A stretch of DNA of 64,000 nt, from positions 2,720,001-2,784,000 of the forward strand of contig OY781964.1 of NCBI GenBank assembly GCA_963677485.1. Reading direction: 5' to 3'. The stretch is from Armatimonadota bacterium. GTDB taxonomy: Bacteria > Armatimonadota > HRBIN16. Of the stretch, positions 33,567 through 48,734 are shown piece by piece (within the stretch, counting starts at the first letter, position 1; the number at the start of each line of letters is the position of its first letter). Made by a program: the position numbers and the translations under genes. Below the pieces are notes generated by a model. That model was given only the letters and a program-made list of their open reading frames with translations. It ran no database searches and was not told the DNA's origin.

Positions 33567-33575
33567 GCACCATAA

Positions 33576-33607
33576 TCAAAAAGGGCGGGCAAATGCCCGC
33601 CCTTTGA
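33576..33607. terminator. Bidirectional terminator
   Basis: AAAGGGCGGGCA-AA-TGCCCGCCCTTT between convergent genes. Confidence 0.8.
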
Positions 33608-33622
33608 GTTAGGTGACTGAGG

Positions 33623-35446
33623 CTAATGCAGAGACTCGTGTGTGCGAACTAAGGCTTCAAACCGAAGGTCGGTGCCCAGCACGCCCAGCACGTTCTCGTC
33701 ATCATCGGTGATCGTGCATGACAAGGTCACGCACAATACGCCGGTGATGCGGGATTTATAGAACTCCGTAATGTACACCTGACCTGGACCCGCATCCAAC
33801 GCGCCTACAAACCAGTCGCGGTCAGCGAAGTCATGATCAAGGCCATATGTTCCAAAGGTTTCTCGGAACTGTGGCTGGGTGACATTGTTGGTAATCTTCT
33901 TGCCCTTCGTATCCACCACATATGCGAACTGGATGAACGCATGTTTATGTACCGCATCTTCTAGAACTTTTTCGATCCTGCTATTGTCCATGCTGATGAT
34001 TTCTGGGTTCTGAACCAGCTCCGCAACGATCTTTTCCACCAGGTTAAGTGCATGATCACGCAGCTTATCGAAGTCGCTCTTGAAGTATTCGGGCAGATGC
34101 ATCCGCGACTGCATCAGCATCTCGTTATCCGATATGGAGGTGACGCGGCCTTGCGCATACTGCTGTCTGATCCACTCCAGCATTCCTGCTAGTCCTGCGT
34201 GCCGCTTATCCAAGGCTACCTCTGGACGAAGCCCCAGGTAGTTGTTGACCCAATGGGCCACTCCGGCCACGCCGGATTTATCGGTGATGTTGACTCGGGC
34301 CGGACGGTCCAGGATCTTGTCGGTATCGAAGATGTTATATATCTCCGCATCTTTCAACATGCCGTCTGCATGAATTCCAGCACTGGTGGCATTGAAGTGT
34401 GAGCCCACGAAGGGATAAGAGGGTGATATATCGACGCCCATCTCTTTTTGGAAGTAGTCAGCGATCTCCGTGATGATGCGCGTATCCACGCCGTTGGTGT
34501 CGCCCTTCAGGGAGATGTAGTCCATGATGGCTCCCTCAAGCGGCGGGTTGCCGGTGCGCTCACCAAAGCCTAGAAGCGCGCAGTTGGCGTTAGAGCACCC
34601 ATACAGCCAGGCGGTGGTGGAGTTGACCAGCACCTTATGGAAGTCGTTATGTCCGTGCCACTCAAGCCACTCACTAGGAACCCCGCATTCGTGGATCATC
34701 GTGTGGATCATCTTGGGCACGCTGCGCGGTAGGGTGGCCTCCGTGTAGGGCACGCCAAATCCCATGGTGTCGCACAACCGGATTTTGACCGCCTTTTTAC
34801 TTTCGCGAGCGACTTCCATCAGCCTTTGTACGAAGGGGATGATGAAGCCGTCGAAGTCCGCGCGGGTGACGTCCTCGAGGTGGCATCGCACCGCGTCAAG
34901 ACCAGACTCCAGGGCCGTGGTGACCAGGTCGACATACATCTCCAGTGCCTGAGAACGCGATTTATTCATTTTGCGGAAGATGTGGTAGTCCGATGCGGAG
35001 GTCAGAATGCCGGTTTCGCGCAGGCCCATCTCCTTCACCAGTTTGAAATCCGCTTTAGTGGCGCGGATCCATCCGGTGACCTCAGGGAACTTGTGGCCCA
35101 GCTCCAGGCATTTATATACGGCCTCTTTATCCTTGTCGCTATACAGGAAGAACTCCGTGGCGCGGATGACACCGTTGGGCCCGCCCAACTGGTTCAGCAG
35201 ATCATACAGGCGCACGATATGCTCAACTTTATATGGCGGCCTGGACTGCTGTCCGTCGCGGAACGTCGTGTCCGTGATATACATTTCTCGTGCGGGTTCC
35301 ATGGGCACAGAGTGACCGTCGAAGACAAGACGCGGCACCTCTGAGTATGGGAACTGCTCCCGCAGCATGTTCGGTTCCGGTACATCAACGACTTCTCGTT
35401 TGGAGGTGGTGTGTAGTAAACCCCATCGCGGGTTTTTTGATATCAT
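33623..35446 (-). CDS. DRE-TIM metallolyase, Re-citrate synthase-like, with a C-terminal Cache-like domain
   Basis: ITDTTFRDGQQSRPPY, EFFLYS, EVTGWIRA, CHLEDVTRAD, EWHGHNDF, GERTGN, TSAGIHADG; C-terminal DFADRDWF...YKSRITG.LC.TLS. Confidence 0.8.
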   Translation of the reverse strand: MISKNPRWGLLHTTSKREVVDVPEPNMLREQFPYSEVPRLVFDGHSVPMEPAREMYITDTTFRDGQQSRPPYKVEHIVRLYDLLNQLGGPNGVIRATEFFLYSDKDKEAVYKCLELGHKFPEVTGWIRATKADFKLVKEMGLRETGILTSASDYHIFRKMNKSRSQALEMYVDLVTTALESGLDAVRCHLEDVTRADFDGFIIPFVQRLMEVARESKKAVKIRLCDTMGFGVPYTEATLPRSVPKMIHTMIHECGVPSEWLEWHGHNDFHKVLVNSTTAWLYGCSNANCALLGFGERTGNPPLEGAIMDYISLKGDTNGVDTRIITEIADYFQKEMGVDISPSYPFVGSHFNATSAGIHADGMLKDAEIYNIFDTDKILDRPARVNITDKSGVAGVAHWVNNYLGLRPEVALDKRHAGLAGMLEWIRQQYAQGRVTSISDNEMLMQSRMHLPEYFKSDFDKLRDHALNLVEKIVAELVQNPEIISMDNSRIEKVLEDAVHKHAFIQFAYVVDTKGKKITNNVTQPQFRETFGTYGLDHDFADRDWFVGALDAGPGQVYITEFYKSRITGVLCVTLSCTITDDDENVLGVLGTDLRFEALVRTHESLH

Positions 35447-35736
35447 AGTCTATATCTCCTGTCGCTCAAGTATTAATGTGTACCAAATATAGTGTACCCT
35501 CAGCAAAAAGATTGTGCCAAATTTCACAATGTCTATTAACATGATTAGTGGACTCGAATGGCTTGGTTGATGAAAGTGAAGAACCCAAGATTAGTGAGTC
35601 GGAGTAAAATGCCGTAGCAAACTGGTTATGGACCATGATGTGTCTCATGGACATCCTACACATTCTGCGACTATACAATCTTACGACACTCTACTAAATA
35701 TAAGTAACTGATGGTGATCAGGATCGCATCATCCGC

Positions 35737-35946
35737 TCACATCCTGGTCGTCGGATACCGGTCCTTGATATTAGCGAAGAAGTACATGCCATGAGAAGCG
35801 GCACTCATCAGAGCATCGTACTCCGATGCGGGGACACCACTGTATTGGTATACAATGCCACGCATGAACTCTATCTCAAGAATTACTGTGTCTGGGTCGT
35901 ATCCGATCGATACTAAATTACTAGATGATACTTGAATGCGTTCCAT
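35737..35946 (-). CDS. KTSC domain protein
   Basis: MERIQVSSSNLVSIGYDP...LEIEF..GIVYQYSGVP..EY..LMSA.SHG.YF..NIKD.Y; ATG 5 nt after the herA stop, with the AAGGAG SD inside herA. Confidence 0.92.
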   Translation of the reverse strand: MERIQVSSSNLVSIGYDPDTVILEIEFMRGIVYQYSGVPASEYDALMSAASHGMYFFANIKDRYPTTRM

Positions 35947-37555
35947 TCTTATTACTCCTTTTCTTGCTCGCTGTTCGATTCCGAAGGCGCTGCATTTACC
36001 CCGGCACTTGGATTCTGATACCGCCAAGCCTCAACAAGAGGCTTGTAGTCTTCGGCTTTGGGTGGCTCTGTCCAACCACCTTCCCGTATGCGCTTTCCGT
36101 CCTCCCCTTTAGGGACAACGACCAACGGGTCGTCGCTATCAGGGCGACAGCCAACTGGCGGTCGATCAATCACTGTTCGGATCGGCATGTTGACGGCTTC
36201 CCCAACGATCAGAGCCTCGCCTGTGCGCAGTATGGGAAGCATCGAAAACAGACCTTTTAAATTGTCAGCAACACATCTGGTAACCTGACCTTGATCTTGT
36301 TCATTGGTCAGTCGCATTGCGACAATAGTTCCACATTGAGAGAGAATCGTTTGGTCGATTTCCGAAGGGCGTTGACTCACCAGCATAAGGCCAACGCCGT
36401 ACTTACGTCCCTCTTTGGCGATACGGCGCGTTGCTGCTGCGGCGCGACCTTTGGATTGTGCGCCTAAATAGTTATGTGCTTCCTCCAATACCAGCAATAA
36501 CGGTCGTTGGCGACCTCCTTCTGGCTTTAATCTTCCCCAGAACATAGCGTCATACAGAATTCGCAGCATTGCTCCCACAATGTCATCGATAATGGCTGAG
36601 GGAACACCAGATAAATCGAACACGGAAATCGGGGTATCCGAGCCAACCCAGTCAGAGAGCAGTTTGTCCAAATCGAGCTCTGTCTTGCCATCCGGCGAAA
36701 CCGCCCACTTACCAGGACGGAATAGGAACTGCATCCTAGGATCGCGAAGCTTCATCTCTAGCATGTCGATGTGGTTGTGAGGTTGATTCGAGTACTGACT
36801 GAGGTATATTTTCGGGGTGCTCGATTTATCCTCTGGCATGAACTTTGGACGCACAAGTCCGTTGACATCTCCTTTAGCTTCAATGGGTGGTGTGCCATCC
36901 TTTGCCCATGCTCTTGTAGCTTCTGTCGGGTTCTGATTAGAGCTGACCGTATGGGTAGCGAAGTGTAAACAATACAAATCATACCAAAGCTTGTGCACTG
37001 AAAATGGTAGCGGTGTGTCTACTGTGATGTCGGTATCAGGCATGATATCAACAATTCCGCCAGAGGCCGAAGCTCTTCGTGCTGTCAGCACATGTTCTTG
37101 GACAAGTGCGAACGGGGTTCCGGTGATATTTCCCATCGAAAAAGAAAGGAACTCGTCGAATGCCAGTGCCCAGTAGGGAATGTACAGTTCGCTTTCGTTA
37201 GCGTCAGTATCTGCTCCAATTCTAAATACCCTCGCCCTTGTCCCGAATGCCTTTGCGTATTCACCATGAAGATCGAGCAGGACAACGCGGGCTGACCCAA
37301 ATCTGCTTGCATCAGAAACCGCTCCCAACAAACTCGCTACTGCCGTAGACTTCCCGGCTCCTGTACTACCAACAACAGCAGAGTGGCGGCTCACAAGACG
37401 GTTCATGTCGAGATAGGCTTTGATGGATTCGGCGCTGGAGACCTTACCTATGTGAGCGGCACCCGAATTTTTACAGACAGAATATTAAGGTAAACTGAGT
37501 TCATGAGGACACATCATTTGAATGATCCGGATCCGATGTCTGTTCCGACGTCCGG

Positions 37556-37930
37556 GTGGAAAGAGCCCCGGAAGGAGCGCGGAGCGCGACTGAAGGGGCG
37601 AGTTCCACCCCGGACGTAAATTTTTTACCGGAGAGCCGACGGTGGTCCTGCCGACGCAAACTTGAGGTGGTTCAACGCTTGATTGGCGGCGAATCCTTGG
37701 AGATCGTATCAAGGCAAATAGGTGTACCGATATATCAGATTGAGGAGTGGCGTGATAGAGCCCTGGCTGGCATGGAATCCGCTCTGAAGATACGTGTTCA
37801 AGATCCCTTAGAGCATCAGCTCAAAGAGGCCCAGCGACGTATCGGTGAGCAATCTATGGAGATTGAACTCCTATACGAGCGATGTCACCGGAGAGAAGCC
37901 CCTTTTACGCGGGGGAAATTACGGAAATGA
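37556..37930 (+). CDS. IS OrfA (HTH); start uncertain
   Basis: RRWSCRRKLEVVQRLIGGESLEIVSRQIGV..YQIEEWRD. Confidence 0.8.
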   Translation: MERAPEGARSATEGASSTPDVNFLPESRRWSCRRKLEVVQRLIGGESLEIVSRQIGVPIYQIEEWRDRALAGMESALKIRVQDPLEHQLKEAQRRIGEQSMEIELLYERCHRREAPFTRGKLRK

Positions 37931-38841
37931 GCACTGCCATTTCCCCCGCCACATGCGCTCACTATGGTGTAGAAAGGGTATGCCGAGTTTGGGAACAACC
38001 TCGCTCTACCTACTATATGCAAATCACAGAGGCTGTTCATCCTGCTTTAAGCACACCCAGGCTAAAGCGTGGACCCAAGACCTCCGTTTCCGATGATGAA
38101 CTATTGGAAGCGATCAAGCTTGTAATCAATGGCTCTCCATTTCAAGGTGAAGGCTATAAGAAAATCCACGCGTCACTGCACTTTGGAGCACAGAAGTTGC
38201 GAGTGGGCAGGAACTGTGTGCTTCGGCTAATGCGTAACAATGAGCTTCTATCGCCTTATCGCAGACCTAAGGCAGATACTAATCAACACAATGGAACGAT
38301 CATTACTGATGCTCCCAATATCATGTGGGGTACTGACGGCACACAGGTGCGGACGGTTGATGATGGAAATATCTGGATATTCAGTGCGGTAGAACACTGG
38401 AACGGTGAGTGCGTAGGCATATATGTCTGCAAACTCGGTACCCGGTTCAACGCCGTTCAACCTGTGCTTGAAGGGGTTCAGGCTATATATGGCAGCGTAG
38501 AGCGTGCTGTCGCCAACGGGCTTACTCTGAGACTCGACAACGGATCCGCAAATTGCTCCGATCACTTCCAGTATGAAATCAAGCGGCTGGGGATCACACC
38601 CAGCTTCAGCTATGTGCAACAGCCCCAGACAAATGGTGTGGTTGAGCGATTCAACCGGACACTAAAGGAACAGGTCATTTACGCACATGTATTTCAGAAT
38701 GTCGACGAAGTGAGGGAAGCAGTGCTACAATTCAAACAGGAGTACAATCGTTCGTGGCGATTGGAGAAGATGGGATTCAAAACGCCGCTTGAAACCCGCC
38801 AGTGCTTTGTAGAAGAGCACTCCATTACAACTGCGGCTTAA
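37927..38841 (+). CDS. IS OrfB, rve/DDE integrase core
   Basis: WGTDGT, LRLDNGS, PQTNGVVERFNRTLKEQ; -1 frame relative to OrfA with a CCCCTTTT slippery candidate near 37879. Confidence 0.9.
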   Translation: MSTAISPATCAHYGVERVCRVWEQPRSTYYMQITEAVHPALSTPRLKRGPKTSVSDDELLEAIKLVINGSPFQGEGYKKIHASLHFGAQKLRVGRNCVLRLMRNNELLSPYRRPKADTNQHNGTIITDAPNIMWGTDGTQVRTVDDGNIWIFSAVEHWNGECVGIYVCKLGTRFNAVQPVLEGVQAIYGSVERAVANGLTLRLDNGSANCSDHFQYEIKRLGITPSFSYVQQPQTNGVVERFNRTLKEQVIYAHVFQNVDEVREAVLQFKQEYNRSWRLEKMGFKTPLETRQCFVEEHSITTAA

Positions 38842-39492
38842 CACTAACCCGTGTCTGTGTAACTGGGTGCGATACAGACCTTACCTATGGTAACATAAGC
38901 ATCCTCATCGCCTGGCGCGTACACCGTCTCCAGGTCGGACTCGGTAACAACATGCACAGAATCGCCGATGGATGGATACTGCGAAATGCCTCGTTCAAAT
39001 GGCTTGCCTCTGCGTCCCTCACCAACCATCTCTACACGTAACCAGCGATTCCCTAATAGAGGCACTGTATCTGGTCCACCCGGAGCTGCGCCTGCACCAA
39101 CTTGCGAGATGATTCCATATAGGTCCACATATCCTGCCGGGATACGAACAAATCCGCCTACCTGTCCCGCTCGGTAACCTTCTCCGTTTACGAACAGGAG
39201 GCCAGTGGGTGTATTCTCTGGCAACTTCACACTGATACTTGAGCCGTTTACATCTTCGACAGTTCCAAGGCGCGAGGGATCAGGATTGAGTTGTTTGTTC
39301 GTCATTGTGTTTCATCCCACCGCAGAGTTGTTCAAGAAATAGCCCAAAGTAATGGAAGTCACCCAGCCTCGACATTGTTTGCTTCTGTCGTGTCAATAGT
39401 CACCTTATTACTACCACCCATGTTCGGCATATGTATACCACTTGACTAGTTCGTGTTCATTGCCCAATGTAAGTGTTGGATGCGTCGGTATC

Positions 39493-40260
39493 TCACTCTA
39501 CGGATGCATTATCCGGCTTGCTTACCTCCCCTCTGCGCTGCCTTTGGCGATAGCTCTCACCGGTGACAACAGTCACCCGGGCATGGTGAGTCAATCTGTC
39601 CATAGCAGCTGAAGCGAGAAGAGAGTCGCCAAACATCTCCGGCCATTCGGAGGGAGCCCGATTAGATGTCAATACAATACTGCCCTTCTCGTATCTCTGG
39701 TGGATGATCTCGTAGAGGTCTTCCGCTCCCTGAATTGTGATGGGGCGAAGACCAAAGTCGTCGAGTATCAGGAGGTCAACGTTGACCAATTTCTTAATCA
39801 ACCGCGTATAAGCATCGTCTGCCCTGGCCGCAAACATCTCCTGTTGCAACTTGTGGACAGAACTGTTATAAACACTGTAGCTTCGCTTAATGGCCTCATA
39901 ACCTATGGCGGTGGCTAGATGTGTCTTGCCCACACCAGTGGGACCACACACCAGCCAGTTGGCATGTTGAGCGATTAACTGGCAGGTCGCCATCTCCCTT
40001 ACCAGCGAACGATCAAGGGTAGGTACAGCGTTGAAGTCGAAGTGGGACAGCAGTTTCGTGTTCTCGAAACAGGCCGCCTTCTCCATCTTTACCTGTTTAG
40101 TTTGGCTGCGTCGCTCAAGCTCATCATCTACTAATAACGCAAGGAACTCCGTTGGTGAGAGCTTTTGCTCACGGGCTAGCTCCGCTCTCTCTTCGAGGCT
40201 ATCAACCATGCCAGACCATCTGAGTTGCCTGAGCTTGGGTAGCAGTGTGTGAGTTAACAC
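39493..40260 (-). CDS. istB: IS21 helper ATPase
   Basis: GPTGVGKTHLA, LLILDDFG, LTSNR, AAMDRLTHH, GESYR. Confidence 0.96.
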   Translation of the reverse strand: MLTHTLLPKLRQLRWSGMVDSLEERAELAREQKLSPTEFLALLVDDELERRSQTKQVKMEKAACFENTKLLSHFDFNAVPTLDRSLVREMATCQLIAQHANWLVCGPTGVGKTHLATAIGYEAIKRSYSVYNSSVHKLQQEMFAARADDAYTRLIKKLVNVDLLILDDFGLRPITIQGAEDLYEIIHQRYEKGSIVLTSNRAPSEWPEMFGDSLLASAAMDRLTHHARVTVVTGESYRQRQRRGEVSKPDNASVE

Positions 40261-41813
40261 GCTTCTACCTCCATATTGGTGTCAGCATTACTGACCAAAA
40301 TGAATTCGTCGGCACTACGAGCGAAGAGGTAGTCTTTTTTAGGGGGAAGAGAAGATGTTATTCCCATTGGCTCGTGATCTGTACCGGCCCTCAGTATCTT
40401 AGCAATGCGTTGGTAACTACCATCTTGGTAATAGAGAGAGCGTGCGCAGGCCGCTTCCAGGCGACTACTGCTGTACGTTTGAACTAGCCGGACGATCCTC
40501 TTCACGGATTGTCTTCGGTCTACAGGCCTGTCAGCCAGCAAAGCATTAAGCACCGTAACACAACTGGGGCCGATGTCATGCCCTAATTCCAGGCAATTCT
40601 CGATTGAAAGAACCATATAGGCCACTTTATGTGTTGGGTAATCAGTCATGCGGGTAATGCGCTGCCCTTGTTGTGTCGCTCTTTGATGTGTTCCAACTAG
40701 TTTATGGTCGTTATCATATATCTGCACCACTCGTTCGTGCAGATGCACGTCCATTTGGCTGCCTATGTAGCTGTAGGGCACGGAATAGTAAGAACCATAC
40801 ACTGTAACATGACAGTCCCGATGGACTTTCGCACTACGAACTTCAATGAGATCAAATTCCGTGTCTGGTAATGACTTAAGCGTGCTCTTCTCTACCTGAT
40901 TGAACTGCGCCAATGGCTGTTTATGTGTGGTTCCATGGTTACGCAGACCTGCCTCTTGTGTGATCCAGGTCTTCACAAGCAGGTTCGCTTCGTCGATATC
41001 CATGAACTCCCGGCCTGCAATGAAGTTTCGCTGCACGTAATGAACCCCGTTTTCCACTTTTCCTTTATGCTCCGGGGTTCTCACTCTACACGGATGAATG
41101 AGGAAGTCGTAGTGCAAGGCCAGTTGCCGATACGGCTCCGAGATGACAGGGTCGTATATATCTGCTTTGAGAACCGCTGACTTTAGATTGTCTATCACAA
41201 GTTCCTCTGGAACGCCTCCGAAGAATTCAAAGGCGTTGATATGGCAGTTCACCCATGTGGGTATCCTTTGATTGAATACAAACTCCACATATTGATGTCG
41301 AGAGTGTGATAGCGTCATCAAGAAGGCATACGTTGAACGCATCTTGCCTGTTGCGGGGTCCTTCATTTGCCCCACAAATCCGAAGTCAACCTGGGCCTGT
41401 TTTCCTGGGTCTGTCTCTAGACGTATAATGGCCAACTGCTCTTTGGGGGTCAGTCCGTTAATGAAGCGAATAACCGAAGAGTAGCTACCGGTAAACCCGT
41501 ATAGTCGTTTGAGGTTGTTGTGGATGGTCACTGCCTCTATGTGAGTCTGGAGATAGGTCTCGATGATTTCGCGGTATGGTTCAGCACTAGACACATTACT
41601 GCGTCGTTTGCGCTGCGGTAAGGTGTCACGAAATGCCTCCATACTCGGCATATCTGAATCTGGAGCCAGGTATCCAAGTCGAGAAGCCCACTGTGCGTAT
41701 TGGCTGACGGTGTTACGAGCGCAGCCCGTGTCACGAGAAATCGCTCGTTGGGACTGCCCACGCCGCAGTCGGAATATGATCTCTTCTATGATCTGCATTC
41801 TTAGCCTTTCCAT
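40254..41813 (-). CDS. istA: IS21 transposase
   Basis: ETDPGKQAQVDFG, FFGGVP..LVIDNLKS, PEHKGKVENGV, YYSVPY. Confidence 0.96.
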   Translation of the reverse strand: MERLRMQIIEEIIFRLRRGQSQRAISRDTGCARNTVSQYAQWASRLGYLAPDSDMPSMEAFRDTLPQRKRRSNVSSAEPYREIIETYLQTHIEAVTIHNNLKRLYGFTGSYSSVIRFINGLTPKEQLAIIRLETDPGKQAQVDFGFVGQMKDPATGKMRSTYAFLMTLSHSRHQYVEFVFNQRIPTWVNCHINAFEFFGGVPEELVIDNLKSAVLKADIYDPVISEPYRQLALHYDFLIHPCRVRTPEHKGKVENGVHYVQRNFIAGREFMDIDEANLLVKTWITQEAGLRNHGTTHKQPLAQFNQVEKSTLKSLPDTEFDLIEVRSAKVHRDCHVTVYGSYYSVPYSYIGSQMDVHLHERVVQIYDNDHKLVGTHQRATQQGQRITRMTDYPTHKVAYMVLSIENCLELGHDIGPSCVTVLNALLADRPVDRRQSVKRIVRLVQTYSSSRLEAACARSLYYQDGSYQRIAKILRAGTDHEPMGITSSLPPKKDYLFARSADEFILVSNADTNMEVEAC

Positions 41814-43603
41814 GTATGCCCTCCTGATAAAACTGTGTCTATCATTTAGGCGGTCAGGGGCATCGAAACACGGCTAGAGTGGTATAGTCATGCCGAACAT
41901 GGGTGGCTCACACATGCCGAATGGGCTGGTATAGTGTAACCCGATTAGCGACATGTCGAAATGTTGTTTCATCGGTCGGGACCTCAACATCGTGTAACCA
42001 TGGCAGGTGTTCCCCATCGCCGCTCGTTCCCGCACGATACTGGCCAACGCGTGTTCCTACGACTGCTCCATCAGATGCAAGGACGGTCAGATTGGGTTGA
42101 GACTTGGCATATTCGACGGCACGTTCATGAGCATCCAGTGTTGAATACATCAAGGCAAAACACTGAGCCTTCAGGTTACCCCTTAAGCCGTCCAGTAGAA
42201 TCTCGTTGAAGTGATCATCAATAAAGGAATAGCCACATATAATTAGTCTTGGTGAACCGTGTGTACGCTGGTCTGAATGTCCTCGCCCAGATGATTCACC
42301 TCGGAAAAAAGCACGCAGCCTATCAAGCATGGCTAAATAAGGCATGCGGCGGCTCTGGTCATATTTCAAGTGTGATGGGTAGATCATCACTTTCTTCTGT
42401 GCTTCACGCGCCACACGCACAACACGTGTGGTAGTTTTACCATTTTTTATTTCCTCAATTTGTTCCCAGTTGATTGACCCATGGAGTTTCCAAAGCCGAG
42501 TCCATCGCAACGGTATGACGTCATGTTCTATGGAAGCGAGGTCAAACCACGGCTCTCGCGTTCCGACGAATCCATCGAAGTGCGGAAGCGACTGACGCTC
42601 AAACGCCTGCTCAAAGAGTAAATCGTAGTTCGGTGTGAATAATTCCACAGGGAAGCTACGCGCTACTCCGCCAATCCATGATGCAAAACGGGTATATGAG
42701 CAGCGATGACTCGGCAGTTCTTTTGACATCACGCCCTTGATTGAGGAGCATATTATATCATCCAAGCTGTTCAACGCATCCTTCGTCATATCCAGCACGT
42801 TGCTGTTTCTTTTTCTACTGGAAAGGATGCGGAGTTCAGTGAGTACATCCTCGACAGTAGGCACGGTAGCAATGGGGCAACTCTGGCCATGACATTCACC
42901 ACATGCTGGTGCTTCTCTACATCCTTTGCACTCCTTACAGATAGCATCCCAAGCTTTTCGATATTCTATCCCACTGCTGGCATTCGCATCTTCTTTATCG
43001 AGAGCTTCAATAACCTGCGTTGTGAGGTTCTTAATATCTGGTATCAGGTTAAGACTCTCAGTTCCATTATTGTCATACACACCAAGTGGACAACCAGCAC
43101 CCAAGAAGAATCCGATCTTCTGCTTGTTGTCCTCCAGTACTTGCCGGAGAGTGTCCACTTGCTGGCTGGCATTATGTATTTTTCCATACTTTTGATCTGT
43201 TTCGGTATTATTTTGCACTATGGACGGTACAACAGAAGAACCTGCCTGCGCTGAAATTTCGGTCATGGAATTACATCCCTCTTAGATACCAGCATTATAA
43301 GAAAAATCGCAACCATGTGTAAATTCTCACATAGAATAGCTTTGTATGAATTCCGCATTTTACTCGACTGGATGGTTATACATTCGATCATAGTCATCCT
43401 GATATCGACGCCACATACACATTACTCCTTTCCAAACACCGTTACAATCTGTCATCCAGATCGCCAATGAGGTCAACTCTCGGTCAAGGTCACCTGCAGC
43501 GACATATTCCCGTACGTGGTGTATCACTTGGACAACAAAGCAGGATTACCCGCCCAGCCTACTGAATATTAGACAGACCAAACCCCACCCAGGAGAAATA
43601 AGT

Positions 43604-45466
43604 ATGCTTAGCGATATTCAGTTTATCCCTCGCCCACGCGTCATCAACGACGTTCCTGAAAGCTTCATCGTGGCAGCGCATCACACCATAGGCAGTATGG
43701 ACGTCATCAACAACTACCCCAATCTGTTGAAACTGCAGCAGGTGATTAAAGAGGAGCTGGGCGTCACTGCCGAGATTGTGTGTGGCTGCGACTGCACATA
43801 CCAGCTCAGCATCGAGCCGACCCTTGGCAAGCAGGCCTATGAGCTGGCGATCAGCGCTGGGTGCGTCAGCATTGTAGGCGGATGTGAGGCGGGGCTGTAT
43901 TACGGCATCTGCACGCTGAAGCAGATCATCCGCGAGTCTGGCAATGAGCTCTGGTGCGGCAGCATCCAGGACCGCCCGGACTACCCAGTGCGCGGCCTGA
44001 TGCTGGACATCTCGCGCGACATGGTGCCCACCATGGACACGCTGAAGATGACAGTGGACATGCTGGCAGACCTCAAACTCAACCGTCTGGAGCTCTATGC
44101 GGAGCACACCTTCAAATACCGTAACCATCCGCAGGTTTGGAGCCTGGCCAGTCCGATCAGCGGAGAGCAGATCCTTGAGCTTCAAGCCTACTGCAAGCTG
44201 AGGCACATCGAGTTGGTGCCCAACCAGAACTGCTTCGGGCACATGCGCCGATGGTTGGATCATCCCGACTATCTGCACCTTGCAGAATCTCCTGAGGGCT
44301 TCGAGTGGCCCTGGGGAGGCAAAATGGAGGGTCCATTCTCGCTGAATTCGCAAGACCCTGAAGCCATCAAGCTGGTGGAGGGCATGTTCGACGAGATGCT
44401 GCCCTATTTTGAGAGCCCCAACGTGAATGTGGGCTGCGACGAGACCTTCGACCTTGGCGCCGGGGCCAGCAAAGAGGCTTGCGAGCGGCTGGGCAAGGGT
44501 CGGGTTTACCTGAATTTCCTTCTGGAAATTTACAAGGTCATGAAAAAGCATGGCAAGGTGATGAACTTCTGGGGTGACATCGTGCAAGAGCACCCCGAGC
44601 TGGTGCCGGAGCTGCCCAAGGACGTGATCGCGTTGGAATGGGGATATGACAAGGGCCATCCCTGGCAGGAGCGTCTGGCTAGGCTGCAGGAAGCTGGTCT
44701 GCCGATCTATGTCTGCCCGGGCACCTCAGCCTGGGGCACCATCGCCGGGCGCACCGATAACTGCATCGCCAACCTGAAGGAAGCCGCGGTTTATGGCCTG
44801 CAGTATGGCGCGATCGGGTATCTGAACACGGACTGGGGCGACTACGGTCATGTCAACAAAACGCCGGTATCCTACCTGGGATACGCCGTTGGCGCGGCTT
44901 ATAGCTGGACTGCGGAGCAGAGTGACCAGATCGACATCCCGGCCGCTCTCAGCAAGCAGGTGTTCAATGACCCCACCGGTCAGATGGGCACCGTGGCTTA
45001 TGAAATGGGCAACGCGCACCTGAAGCTAGGCAAAGTCGTGGGCAACTCCAGCGTGCTTTGGCAAGGCATCGTGCCCGGGCTCAGTGCGGAATCGTTGAAA
45101 GCAGATGACCGCGGCCCTGAGATCACGGTGGAGAAGATCGATGAGGCGATCGCAATGATTGAGGCGTTGCAGGCGCGCGTGCTGCGATCCGGCAGTAAGC
45201 GAGCGGATGCTCAGTTGCTGGTGGATGAGTGGTATAGCGTGGGCGAGATGCTGAAACACGGCTGTTACCGCTGGCGCGCTCTGGCTGAGGGTCGCTACGA
45301 AAACCAAGCCACGAAGAACAGGCTGTCGTCGCACCTTCGCACCGTGATCGGCGAGCACCAGCGGCTCTGGATGCAGCGTGCCGAGGTAGGCGGTCTGCGC
45401 GACAGCGTCAGCCGGCTGTGGAACCTGATGAACGAATACGGGATCAAAGAGCACCAGGGTATGTAG
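43604..45466 (+). CDS. GH20 beta-N-acetylhexosaminidase-like
   Basis: IQDRPDYPVRGLMLDISRD, LVPNQNCFGH, NVGCDET (catalytic DE), GYLNTDWGD. Confidence 0.9.
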   Translation: MLSDIQFIPRPRVINDVPESFIVAAHHTIGSMDVINNYPNLLKLQQVIKEELGVTAEIVCGCDCTYQLSIEPTLGKQAYELAISAGCVSIVGGCEAGLYYGICTLKQIIRESGNELWCGSIQDRPDYPVRGLMLDISRDMVPTMDTLKMTVDMLADLKLNRLELYAEHTFKYRNHPQVWSLASPISGEQILELQAYCKLRHIELVPNQNCFGHMRRWLDHPDYLHLAESPEGFEWPWGGKMEGPFSLNSQDPEAIKLVEGMFDEMLPYFESPNVNVGCDETFDLGAGASKEACERLGKGRVYLNFLLEIYKVMKKHGKVMNFWGDIVQEHPELVPELPKDVIALEWGYDKGHPWQERLARLQEAGLPIYVCPGTSAWGTIAGRTDNCIANLKEAAVYGLQYGAIGYLNTDWGDYGHVNKTPVSYLGYAVGAAYSWTAEQSDQIDIPAALSKQVFNDPTGQMGTVAYEMGNAHLKLGKVVGNSSVLWQGIVPGLSAESLKADDRGPEITVEKIDEAIAMIEALQARVLRSGSKRADAQLLVDEWYSVGEMLKHGCYRWRALAEGRYENQATKNRLSSHLRTVIGEHQRLWMQRAEVGGLRDSVSRLWNLMNEYGIKEHQGM

Positions 45467-45482
45467 CAGATCGGGTGTGGTT

Positions 45483-45510
45483 CGTAGGGGCGAACGGCCG
45501 TTCGCCCTTA
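45483..45510 (+). repeat. GTAG REP
   Basis: CGTAGGGGCGAACGGCCGTTCGCCCTTA. Confidence 0.7.
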
Positions 45511-45538
45511 GATTCTAAAGCAACGAAGCCGAAAGCGG

Positions 45539-47161
45539 CTACGACTTGCTCTCGTGGTATTCCTTCTCCACATTCACATTCCACACATCATCGCGGTTTT
45601 GAATCTTGCCCGAAATGTAGTCCACCGCGACCATGGCGGTCAGCATAGAGTGGTCCTGGTTGTTATATCTGTGCTGCCCATTACGCCCCACCATGAAGAG
45701 GTTCTCAAACCGGCTAAGGTAACTCTTGACCTGGTCGAATTGCTCATAGCTGCCGAAATAGGCGGGATAGGCTTTCGGTACGCGGATCAGCACGGTCTTC
45801 AAGATATCATCAACATCAACCACGCCGATGGTCGCCAGCTCTTTGACGGCAAACGCGCAGAAGCTCTTATCATCCATCGACCAGAGCTCATCACCCTCGT
45901 TCGCAAAGTATTCCATACCAACCCAGGCTGTATTGCTATCCGCCACCATGTAGGGGCTCCAGTTGTTAAATATCTGAAGCCTGCCCACGCGCACATCGGG
46001 TTCCTGGATATATATCCAGTTGTCAGGCACAATATTGTTTACCGATGGGCGGTCGGTGTCATTGGTGAGCTTCAGCTTACGGGCCAGCACGCCCACGGTC
46101 ATGAAGTCGCGGTACTGCAGACCGGCGGCCACATCCGCTATCTCTTGCGGCACTTGAGTTTTGAGTGCTGGCAGCAGCTCCTTGATGGGCATACTGCTGA
46201 ATACGTAATCTCCCAATATCGTCTCAACCTCACCAGTTTCGGGGTTCAACACTTGAACTCCTGTGATGCGGTCGCCCTCTGTCGTCAGCCCTACTACCTT
46301 CGTGCCCATACGGATCTCGGCTCCTGCTTGAAGCAGATCAGCTGCCACCACTTCCCACAACTGCCCCGGGCCAAGTTTCGGGTACCAAAACCGCTCGATC
46401 AGACTGGTTTCGACCTTTGATTGGTCTGATTTGCTGGATTTTGGCAGGGCCGATTTGAGGGCGTGGAGAAGGGCTTTACTTAATGATAGCCCCTTAATAC
46501 GCTGCGCACCCCATGCCGCGGACAGCTTGTGGCAGGGGACACCCCAAACCTTCTCGGTGTAATCTCTGAAAAAAGTGCAGTAGAGCTCATACCCAAACTG
46601 GTTGACCAGGAAATCTTCCAACGATCGCACAGGCTTGCGCTTGGCAACTTTGGCCACAACATAACCCCAGCCTATCCGCATCACGCGAGTCAACCCCAGG
46701 TTCTTCAGGGTTTTGCCAGACAGGCTGATGGGGTAGTCAAAAAACTTGCGCAGGAACAGGATTCGCGAGAGGCGGCTCCTGTTGAGCATCACCCGATCCG
46801 TCGCTTCCGGGTCACGCTGTCTGCACTCGATGGCCTCAGACGAATCGAGGGGCAGCACGACGCACTTATCGACCAACTCGACATCACGATGTAGTATCTT
46901 GTCATCAGAGCTTGGTGCTGACTGCGGAGGCATGACGTTGAACCACCAGTCCATGACGCGCTGGGATTTTGAGAAAAACCGGTGCCCGCCGATGTCTATG
47001 CGGTTGCCTTCAAACTGATCGGTACGGGAAATCCCGCCGATTGACTGGCTGGCCTCGAATACTATAGGTTTCACATCAGTGTGGCGAAGCAGCTCGTATG
47101 CCGCCGTTAAGCCCGCAGGGCCAGCTCCTATGATCAATGCGGTTTTCTTCGATTCAGCCAC
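45539..47161 (-). CDS. FAD-dependent oxidoreductase (protoporphyrinogen oxidase / UDP-galactopyranose mutase-like)
   Basis: [41 protein letters not shown]. Confidence 0.88.
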
Positions 47162-47465
47162 TTGTCTCTACCTCTTTACTACACATCAGGTCTTAACTCA
47201 CTCGATTTCACGATGGCAATACAACAACGTTTTACATGTTCTGCCATGCAGTAGGTTAGAATCGCCTACTACATTCTTGCATAAAAACCAGACATATGGG
47301 AGCCGTTTGGATAGTAACTATTACCGTCACTTGATGCCGACGTTTTTACGATATGCTATAATACCCATATGACGGCGAAACTGCAGAATGTGGGTACTAT
47401 GGAATTTGATCTATTTAATCGAAATGGAGCAGGCCTGCGCAGATGAAAGATGATGGAGTGGCACG

Positions 47466-48734
47466 GTGAGAAAAACCAAATCTGAAAACACGGTTCCATA
47501 CAGCGTTCCATACGGACGATGGTTTTGGATACTGATCTGCTGCGCGTTGGTCGCCTGTCTAGCGACAGTATACCTTCATCGGATGGATACCCCGGACCGG
47601 CTTGCCAATGATGCGCTTGACTACCATAACCTGGCACTGCAGTTGATAAAAGATCACTCATATGGCAGCACCTACCGCGTGCCGGCATATCCTGCCCTGC
47701 TTGCATTGGTGTATGCGGTCACAGGACCAAACCTGCCCGCTGTTTACCTGATGCAGTCGCTGCTATTCGTGGCCTCTTTGGTGTTAGTCTATACTATCGC
47801 TTCTATGCTGGTTCGGAACGAAACCACATCGCTGATTGCTTTGGCGGTTTGTCTACTATATCCACCTTTTTGGCGTTCTCTAACCGATGTGCTCACCGAG
47901 CCTCTGGCCATGTTCCTTGTGACAGCCACAGTATGGCAGTTAATTCTATGTATTGAGAAGGTCAGTGTCCGTCGGTGTTTCGCAGTAGGTGTGCTACTGG
48001 CGATGACTACACTGTGCAAGGCCGTGACGATCCCATACATAATCATAGCGGCATACCTGGTGCTGAAGCCAAATGGAGTGAAGAAACTGAACTGGGCAGG
48101 GGCTTGTGTGCTTCTTGTCGCCGCGTCGGTATGTCTAGGTGCCTGGACGGTGCGAAACTACAGAGTGACGGGTGAAATCATCCCAGTGGCGACGGGTGGC
48201 GGGTTCAATTTTTGGCTGGGAAACTGGTCACCGTATTACCACCACGTATGGAAGTGGCAAAATTATCCACCCGAATTGGCCCGTCAGCTAGCGGGGAAGA
48301 CCGAAGTGGAGCAGGACAAGATATTCACACGGGTGGCGATAAACCAAATGACGAGAGAACCGCTGGCGGCTGCAGGGATGTTTGTTCAGAAGTTCTCCGA
48401 CCTGTGGCTTGCGGGGATCGGTAGAGACCCCGCATCGGTACCCACTCCTGTCAAGGCGATTGGCCGGTTTACTATCCCAAAACTGTCGTTCGTGTGCATC
48501 CCGTTGCTAATATTGGCTGTTATGGGATATCGACGGCTGTCACGTGAGGAACGGCGGCGTGCCCTGCCCGTGACCACGCTGATGCTGTGGTGGACAGCGG
48601 CGTATGTGCTGACTACCGTGGCCCCCGTGCGTTATGTTCTGCCGGTGATGGCATTCGAAGTTGTGCTGGCATCCGTTGCGATATCGGCTGGGGTGACAAG
48701 GCTCGCGATGAAACGCAAACGTGCCACCGCCTGA
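47466..48734 (+). CDS. GT-C fold membrane glycosyltransferase (ArnT/PMT-like)
   Basis: Multi-TM; NDALDY, YRVPAYP, VLTEPL, WTVRNY...GGFNFWLGN, RYVLPV. Confidence 0.8.
   Translation: MRKTKSENTVPYSVPYGRWFWILICCALVACLATVYLHRMDTPDRLANDALDYHNLALQLIKDHSYGSTYRVPAYPALLALVYAVTGPNLPAVYLMQSLLFVASLVLVYTIASMLVRNETTSLIALAVCLLYPPFWRSLTDVLTEPLAMFLVTATVWQLILCIEKVSVRRCFAVGVLLAMTTLCKAVTIPYIIIAAYLVLKPNGVKKLNWAGACVLLVAASVCLGAWTVRNYRVTGEIIPVATGGGFNFWLGNWSPYYHHVWKWQNYPPELARQLAGKTEVEQDKIFTRVAINQMTREPLAAAGMFVQKFSDLWLAGIGRDPASVPTPVKAIGRFTIPKLSFVCIPLLILAVMGYRRLSREERRRALPVTTLMLWWTAAYVLTTVAPVRYVLPVMAFEVVLASVAISAGVTRLAMKRKRATA

Follow-up and report, generated by a model that had tools for sequence, protein, structure and literature searches.

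Three genes, sir2, herA, and a small gene for a KTSC domain, were analyzed in a 64,000-nucleotide (nt) stretch of DNA from an Armatimonadota bacterium (assembly GCA_963677485.1, contig OY781964.1, positions 2,720,001 to 2,784,000), which is referred to here as the window and whose numbering is used for positions unless stated otherwise. The comparative counts identify the KTSC gene, which encodes 69 amino acids (aa), as a real, conserved, and tightly linked third cistron of this SIR2-HerA subtype. It is likely that the gene encodes the distal half of the HerA C-terminal arm as a separate polypeptide, which would act in trans by docking on HerA and supporting its hexamer. A preliminary description of this DNA had proposed a three-component variant with a kind of subunit not described before. 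The conserved third gene was borne out in 33 of 33 related loci; the novelty of the subunit was not, since the same domain is fused to HerA in the solved system of Paenibacillus sp. 453MF. For that reason the window holds the common split form of a known domain, and KTSC, as judged by homology, is not a new kind of subunit.

The family assignments were strong, and they place the cassette among the SIR2-HerA anti-phage systems, in the subtype of Paenibacillus sp. 453MF. The genes lie on the minus strand, and sir2 and herA are each interrupted by an insertion sequence (IS). The 5' part of sir2 (41954..43266), with codons 1-437 and the start of codon 438, is cut by an IS21-family element, and the 3' tail, with the last 35 codons and the stop, lies at 39280..39385 and overlaps the herA start. 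The open reading frame (ORF) of sir2 as it now stands (41908-43266, 452 aa) matched SIR2_2 in Pfam (E 1.6e-12) and the SIR2 models PDLC04094 (E 7e-104) and PDLC04093 (E 1e-96) in PADLOC. The herA gene is divided into a 5' part (38877..39305) with codons 1-143, corresponding to the N-terminal beta-barrel region, and a 3' part (35952..37439) with codons 144-638, corresponding to the RecA-like ATPase, the helical bundle, and the proximal arm. The PADLOC HerA model PDLC04105 was matched by both the 5' piece (38844-39305, E 5e-18, model positions 8-153) and the 3' piece (35952-37406, E 4e-127), and the latter also matched DUF87 and HerA_C in Pfam. PDLC04094 and PDLC04093 are SIR2 models of the SIR2-HerA system itself. 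Identity of the herA 5' part was 73-81% with 28 of the 32 closest loci and 47-67% with L009, L025-L027, and L030. The Walker A motif GSTGAGKS of the window HerA aligned to 8wiv_A, the HerA chain of the Paenibacillus structure, and residues N213, D215, and H262 of the window SIR2 aligned with the catalytic N163, D165, and H212 in Paenibacillus numbering. The KTSC gene (35737..35946) is intact; its ORF matched Pfam PF13619 (E 5e-23, 80.9 bits, cut-off 25), and no model in PADLOC-DB 2.0.0 matched it.

Conservation of KTSC behind herA

When the HerA 3' piece was used to scan genomes, one per species, 113 pattern matches were obtained; 89 of them encode relatives, and the best 80 of these 89 were analyzed. 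By tblastn, each of the 32 loci with a HerA at least 41% identical to that of the window had KTSC immediately behind herA, and none of the remaining 48 did. A profile built from 27 KTSC sequences added one further locus (L033, HerA 39% identical), where an ORF scored 30.8 bits against a Pfam cut-off of 25, and it found nothing in the 47 more distant HerA loci that remained. In total, all 33 loci with a HerA at least 39% identical to the window HerA had KTSC behind herA in the same orientation. No close homologous operon without KTSC, the finding on which the preliminary description had let its proposal fall, was encountered among these related loci. The 47 loci without KTSC comprised 26 distant SIR2-HerA pairs, with a HerA 29-36% identical and a weak SIR2 match, and 21 loci without a detectable SIR2.

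The hosts of the loci belonged to Pseudomonadota, Acidobacteriota, Planctomycetota, and Eisenbacteria. KTSC was a separate ORF in 32 of the 33 loci, was 69 aa long in nearly all of them, and was spaced from herA by anything between a 59-nt overlap and a 53-nt gap. In the one other locus (L030, Rhodobacteraceae), it was fused in frame to herA. The split form, with a separate KTSC gene, is on these counts the common one. In a quick HerA tree, which left out L039 and L062 (matched stretch shorter than 300 aa), the 34 KTSC-linked rows, namely the 33 loci and the window, fell on one side of a branch with a Shimodaira-Hasegawa-like approximate likelihood ratio (SH-aLRT) support of 99, and the other 45 rows fell on the opposite side.

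KTSC is under purifying selection. The ratio of nonsynonymous to synonymous substitution rates (dN/dS) had a median of 0.12 and a maximum of 0.34 among the 77 of 351 pairs with a dS between 0.1 and 2; all pairs that involve the window were saturated. In RefSeq, the same triplet is annotated on two plasmids, one from Bradyrhizobium and a conjugative one from Escherichia coli, as a SIR2 family protein, an ATP-binding protein, and a KTSC domain-containing protein. KTSC genes do occur in many unrelated contexts, as would be expected if the gene were an unrelated chance neighbor behind herA, but this explanation is hardly credible: it is contradicted by the counts, with KTSC next to the 3' end of herA and in the same orientation in every locus of the clade and in several phyla, and by the existence of fusions.

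Two observations were made on the surroundings of the related loci. First, the SIR2-HerA-KTSC cassettes of L005, L006, and L032 (a Lysobacteraceae metagenome-assembled genome, Hydrogenophaga intermedia, and Aeromonas rivuli) were identical at the protein level. Upstream of the cassette, all three carry a PDC-M68B/LmuB-like gene, and L005 and L032 also have a tyrosine integrase on the downstream side; the identical cassettes and their neighbors indicate a recent horizontal transfer on a mobile island. Second, 18 of 32 related loci (among others L003:1646-3091, L004:1904-3181, L007:1735-3135, L012:742-2034, and L013:1851-3176) had a DUF2130 (PF09903) gene of 425-494 aa immediately upstream of sir2 and in the same orientation. 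In the Bradyrhizobium plasmid, the DUF2130 gene was instead located downstream of the triplet, past an AbiEi gene on the opposite strand. DUF2130 was rejected as a fourth component, as it is absent from the window, had no PADLOC match, and is displaced in the Bradyrhizobium plasmid, and it was treated as a frequent neighbor that is not part of the system.

KTSC as a probable detached part of the HerA arm

Among sequences of solved structures, the window KTSC matched the stand-alone KTSC proteins 7x8c_A (E 1e-18) and 4rgi (E 3e-13), and it also matched residues 630-695 of the 696-aa HerA chain 8wiv_A (E 7e-15, 46% identity). This chain was the best structure match of the window HerA (E 2e-137), and its SIR2 partner 8w9l_A was the best structure match of the window SIR2 (E 3e-71). 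According to the available part of the structural paper (PMC11472057), which is also the basis of all statements cited from it below, residues 576-696 of the Paenibacillus sp. 453MF HerA form a C-terminal arm domain that wraps the adjacent RecA-like domain and stabilizes the split-spiral hexamer. The KTSC match at residues 630-695 falls within this published arm domain, and the word KTSC does not appear in the paper.

An AlphaFold2 (AF2) model of the window KTSC, predicted from a 27-sequence alignment with a predicted local distance difference test (pLDDT) score of 94, superposed on the HerA chains of 8wld, 8wof, and 8wiv with template modeling (TM) scores of 0.85-0.91 and root-mean-square deviations of approximately 1.0-1.1 Å. 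The TM score was 0.91 for the HerA chains of 8wld and 8wof, and 0.97 for 7x8c. Because the model superposes on these HerA chains, the KTSC domain is ordered in the cryo-electron microscopy models.

A query with the C-terminal region of the L030 fusion retrieved further fused forms: ten proteins of 413-691 aa, nine of them between 667 and 691 aa, carry HerA domains together with PF13619. One of these ten, the fused protein P0130, is colinear with 8wiv_A (residues 5-691 versus 11-696). In its AF2 model (pLDDT 75), residues 575-621 form a linker with a pLDDT below 50, and the final two helices, 662-670 and 674-681, sit in KTSC. The helix count of this model fits the alpha7-alpha8 loop and the location of alpha12, alpha13, and alpha15 in the catalytic domain as given in PMC11472057. 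Owing to this agreement with the published numbering, alpha19-20 of the paper are probably the two KTSC helices. In the split KTSC proteins, S51 and G53 are invariant and are located in the linker between the two helices.

Other searches were directed at the same relationship. Within the protein collection searched with the window KTSC, no longer KTSC-containing proteins were found, which is weak evidence by the search's own standard. The 120 best homologues of the window HerA, which were 67-72% identical and mostly 624-644 aa long, all lacked PF13619. A complex prediction of the 3' part of the window HerA (484 aa) with KTSC scored 0.00 with no control runs alongside, and is neutral either way.

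In the Paenibacillus sp. 453MF system, a ring of the NADase SIR2 and a hexamer of the ATPase/helicase HerA form one complex; on assembly, NAD+ breakdown and a nuclease activity are turned on (PMC11472057). SIR2 alone is auto-inhibited and is activated by the binding of HerA, without a third factor (PMC11472057). By analogy, the 69-aa KTSC protein probably attaches, without a covalent link, to the RecA-like domain of one HerA subunit, and the docking would involve the conserved helix-linker-helix at residues 40-59 of the window KTSC. The docked protein would take the part that the fused arm plays in the solved complex and help to maintain the working conformation of the hexamer. Co-expression of herA and KTSC may be favored by their close spacing and by a ribosome-binding site that falls within the 3' end of herA.

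A different role, in which KTSC is an antitoxin-like inhibitor that silences a toxic SIR2-HerA complex until infection, would suit the small size of the gene and its terminal position in an operon that encodes a growth-arresting effector, and KTSC is also the sole intact gene of the window cassette. Such a role is nevertheless very improbable. The fused forms speak against a titratable inhibitor, the auto-inhibited SIR2 is activated by HerA with no third factor in the published system (PMC11472057), and the distant SIR2-HerA loci manage without KTSC (0 of 26).

KTSC also occurs apart from HerA. It was detected in 44 of 301 genomes sampled from the phylum of the window; 29 other KTSC loci were fetched, and 36 of the 85 ORFs that flank KTSC were scanned. 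Stand-alone KTSC genes were observed beside genes for an OLD-like TOPRIM/AAA ATPase and for HEPN proteins, and one KTSC of the same phylum is fused to a 6-phosphogluconate-dehydrogenase-like NAD-binding protein (L100:1740-3137, L102:669-1469, L108:840-1331, and L114:1453-2622). Nucleic-acid binding by KTSC has been predicted, and not measured, in two comparative papers, PMC7824862 and the available part of PMC9503650; one of them speaks of DNA and the other of RNA.

KTSC could also be read as a separate sensor or regulator, the role proposed in the preliminary description, which would bind phage nucleic acid or another infection signal and switch the complex by binding to or leaving HerA. The separate gene in the majority of loci (32 of 33), the lack of PF13619 in the 120 best HerA homologues, the similar KTSC homologues found away from HerA, of which two adjoin OLD-type or HEPN genes, and the predicted affinity for nucleic acid are all in its favor. 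However, the fused forms of Paenibacillus, L030, and the ten database proteins need no dissociation: as the domain works when permanently fused to HerA, KTSC need not dissociate at all. Moreover, in the published structure the domain is a structural element of the hexamer (PMC11472057), and no ligand is known. On balance, a sensor or regulator was considered fairly unlikely.

A related possibility is that free KTSC is a dissociable nucleic-acid-binding adaptor common to several defense ATPases and nucleases, whose binding to or release from HerA would, in split SIR2-HerA systems, gate the transition between an open spiral and an active ring on infection. If true, this would explain both the separate gene in most lineages and the near-identical KTSC proteins beside OLD-type and HEPN genes. 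It was judged unlikely.

Several points weigh against the detached-arm reading itself. KTSC is not specific to HerA, which adjoined only one of the 29 other KTSC loci fetched, and several KTSC copies without HerA were 48-53% identical to the window KTSC, about as similar as the HerA-linked ones. The occurrence of such similar copies without HerA suggests a generic activity that belongs to the KTSC fold itself and may be nucleic-acid binding. In addition, the 33 loci are not independent, because they include many close relatives and two sets of three identical loci. The assignment of alpha19-20 relies on helices that we counted in the predicted structure of a homologue and not on the deposited coordinates, and the binding of free KTSC to HerA is reasoned from the fused form. 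Finally, no deletion or mutation of the arm domain was found in the available part of PMC11472057, and the need of the fused domain for defense is thus unproven. With these points taken into account, KTSC as the detached distal half of the HerA arm remained the likely reading.

Insertion sequences and genomic setting of the cassette

The IS21-family element (39391..41953, minus strand) is flanked by a 5-bp target duplication, TGTCG, at 39386-39390 and 41954-41958. It carries istA (40254-41813) and istB (39493-40260) on the minus strand, with the Pfam matches IstB_IS21, rve, and Mu-transpos_C_2. The IS3-family element (37453..38876, plus strand) is flanked by a 13-bp target duplication, GACCTTACCTATG, at 37440-37452 and 38877-38889, and carries orfA (37556-37930) and orfB (37882-38841) on the plus strand, with the Pfam matches HTH_Tnp_1, HTH_21, rve, and rve_3. 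The ends and duplications of both elements were set by comparing further copies within the same 5.22-Mb genome. The target duplications of IS3 elements usually measure 3-5 bp, and 13 bp is far longer. This element is 1424 bp long with TG...CA ends; a second genomic copy has a 14-bp duplication, and two further copies show none.

The IS21-family element was found at nine places in its own genome with at least 99% identity. The IS3-family element was also found at nine places, which included the window copy, four other full-length copies, and four partial or diverged ones. For both types, the matching places in the genome were mostly 99-100% identical, indicating recent bursts. At one place, approximately 3427665-3431663 of the genome, an IS21-type copy is located inside an IS3-type copy.

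The cassette was reconstructed by a scripted excision of each IS together with one copy of its target duplication. This resulted in a sir2 of 472 aa, a herA of 638 aa, and a KTSC gene of 69 aa, with a sir2/herA overlap of 26 nt and a herA/KTSC gap of 5 nt. The gene sizes given in the preliminary description, of about 472 aa, about 638 aa, and 69 aa, and the 26-nt overlap reported there were reproduced exactly. The herA/KTSC junction also reads as it had been described, GAAAAGGAGTAATAAGAATG, and the Shine-Dalgarno sequence AAGGAG of the KTSC gene falls within the final herA codons. The IS21-family element interrupts sir2 after codon 437 and replaces the final 35 SIR2 residues, and the IS3-family element interrupts herA after codon 143 and splits HerA after residue 143, so that only KTSC is intact. 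Because both sir2 and herA are interrupted, the SIR2-HerA system of this genome cannot function, and the copy is a relic of its family. It represents a defense operon that was disabled twice by insertion sequences multiplying in the same genome. Upstream of sir2, a sigma-70-like promoter match, TTTACA-18-TATAAT, was located at 43294..43323 on the minus strand. It agrees with the consensus at 11 of 12 positions and is the best of the region; it is a consensus match only, and the count of such sites was not above that in shuffled sequences.

The insert that holds the whole cassette and its two ISs spans 35533..43537, or approximately 4.0 kb without the ISs. All three genes are located in an AT-richer island, as had been noted in the preliminary description: the GC content was 0.46-0.52 over 35000-43500, versus 0.53-0.60 on either flank. 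A genome of the same genus (G001) aligned to the window at 33574-35532 and 43538-48691 with 85-86% identity and with the flanks in the same order. It has 1160 bp in the place of 35533-43537, where the ORFs are short (at most 118 aa), and no SIR2, HerA, or KTSC match was found within these 1160 bp. Since G001 has both flanks without the cassette, the cassette is a strain-specific insert of approximately 8 kb. No direct repeats were found when sought at the ends of the insert.

The insert is flanked by a GH20 glycosidase gene on one side and, on the other, by the gene of an HMGL-like/Cache-domain protein (33623-35446, minus strand). The latter encodes a protein of 607 aa with an HMGL-like aldolase/synthase domain and a C-terminal Cache/PDC sensor-like domain, which is an unusual pairing.

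Comparison with known systems

The closest counterpart of the window cassette is the SIR2-HerA system of Paenibacillus sp. 453MF (structures 8w9l, 8wiv, 8wj3, 8wld, and 8wof; Nucleic Acids Res 2024, PMC11472057), whose domain content and order are the same. HerA of that system has 696 aa, with KTSC as its covalent C-terminus, whereas the window encodes KTSC in a 69-aa gene of its own, located behind a herA of 638 aa. The two systems also differ in that the window SIR2 is about 90 residues longer (472 versus 381 aa) and that the window copy is broken by two ISs.

The stand-alone KTSC structures 7x8c (Methanolobus vulcani) and 4rgi (YPO2434, Yersinia pestis) share the fold and length of the window KTSC, with TM scores of 0.93-0.97 and 45-52% identity. 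Among the best-ranked papers of the literature search, nothing was found on the function of KTSC or of the 7x8c and YPO2434 structures. Likewise, no paper naming KTSC as a SIR2-HerA component was found in the literature search. A genetic coupling of a HerA-like ATPase to a KTSC gene has been mentioned as an unpublished observation in one sentence by Iyer et al. (Viruses 2022, PMC9503650). In the available part of that paper, the variant apparently has an endoDNase in place of the sirtuin and is given without counts, loci, or structures, whereas the window has SIR2.

The two-gene SIR2-HerA system of the E. coli type and the distant loci L055-L080 share with the window the arrangement of a SIR2 gene followed by a HerA gene, as well as the PADLOC system name. 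In L055-L080, however, HerA is only 29-36% identical to that of the window, and a KTSC gene or domain was found in none of the 26 loci. The E. coli-type system likewise has no KTSC, unlike the window. The E. coli and Paenibacillus proteins share 28% and 23% identity and have a different SIR2-HerA interface (PMC11472057).

For annotation and experiments, the comparison has a practical value, and no new mechanism is proposed. Cloning sir2 and herA alone from an operon of this kind would leave out part of the HerA arm domain. Catalogues and papers treat SIR2-HerA as a two-gene system, whereas three genes are usual in the branch that includes the Paenibacillus system, the best studied one.

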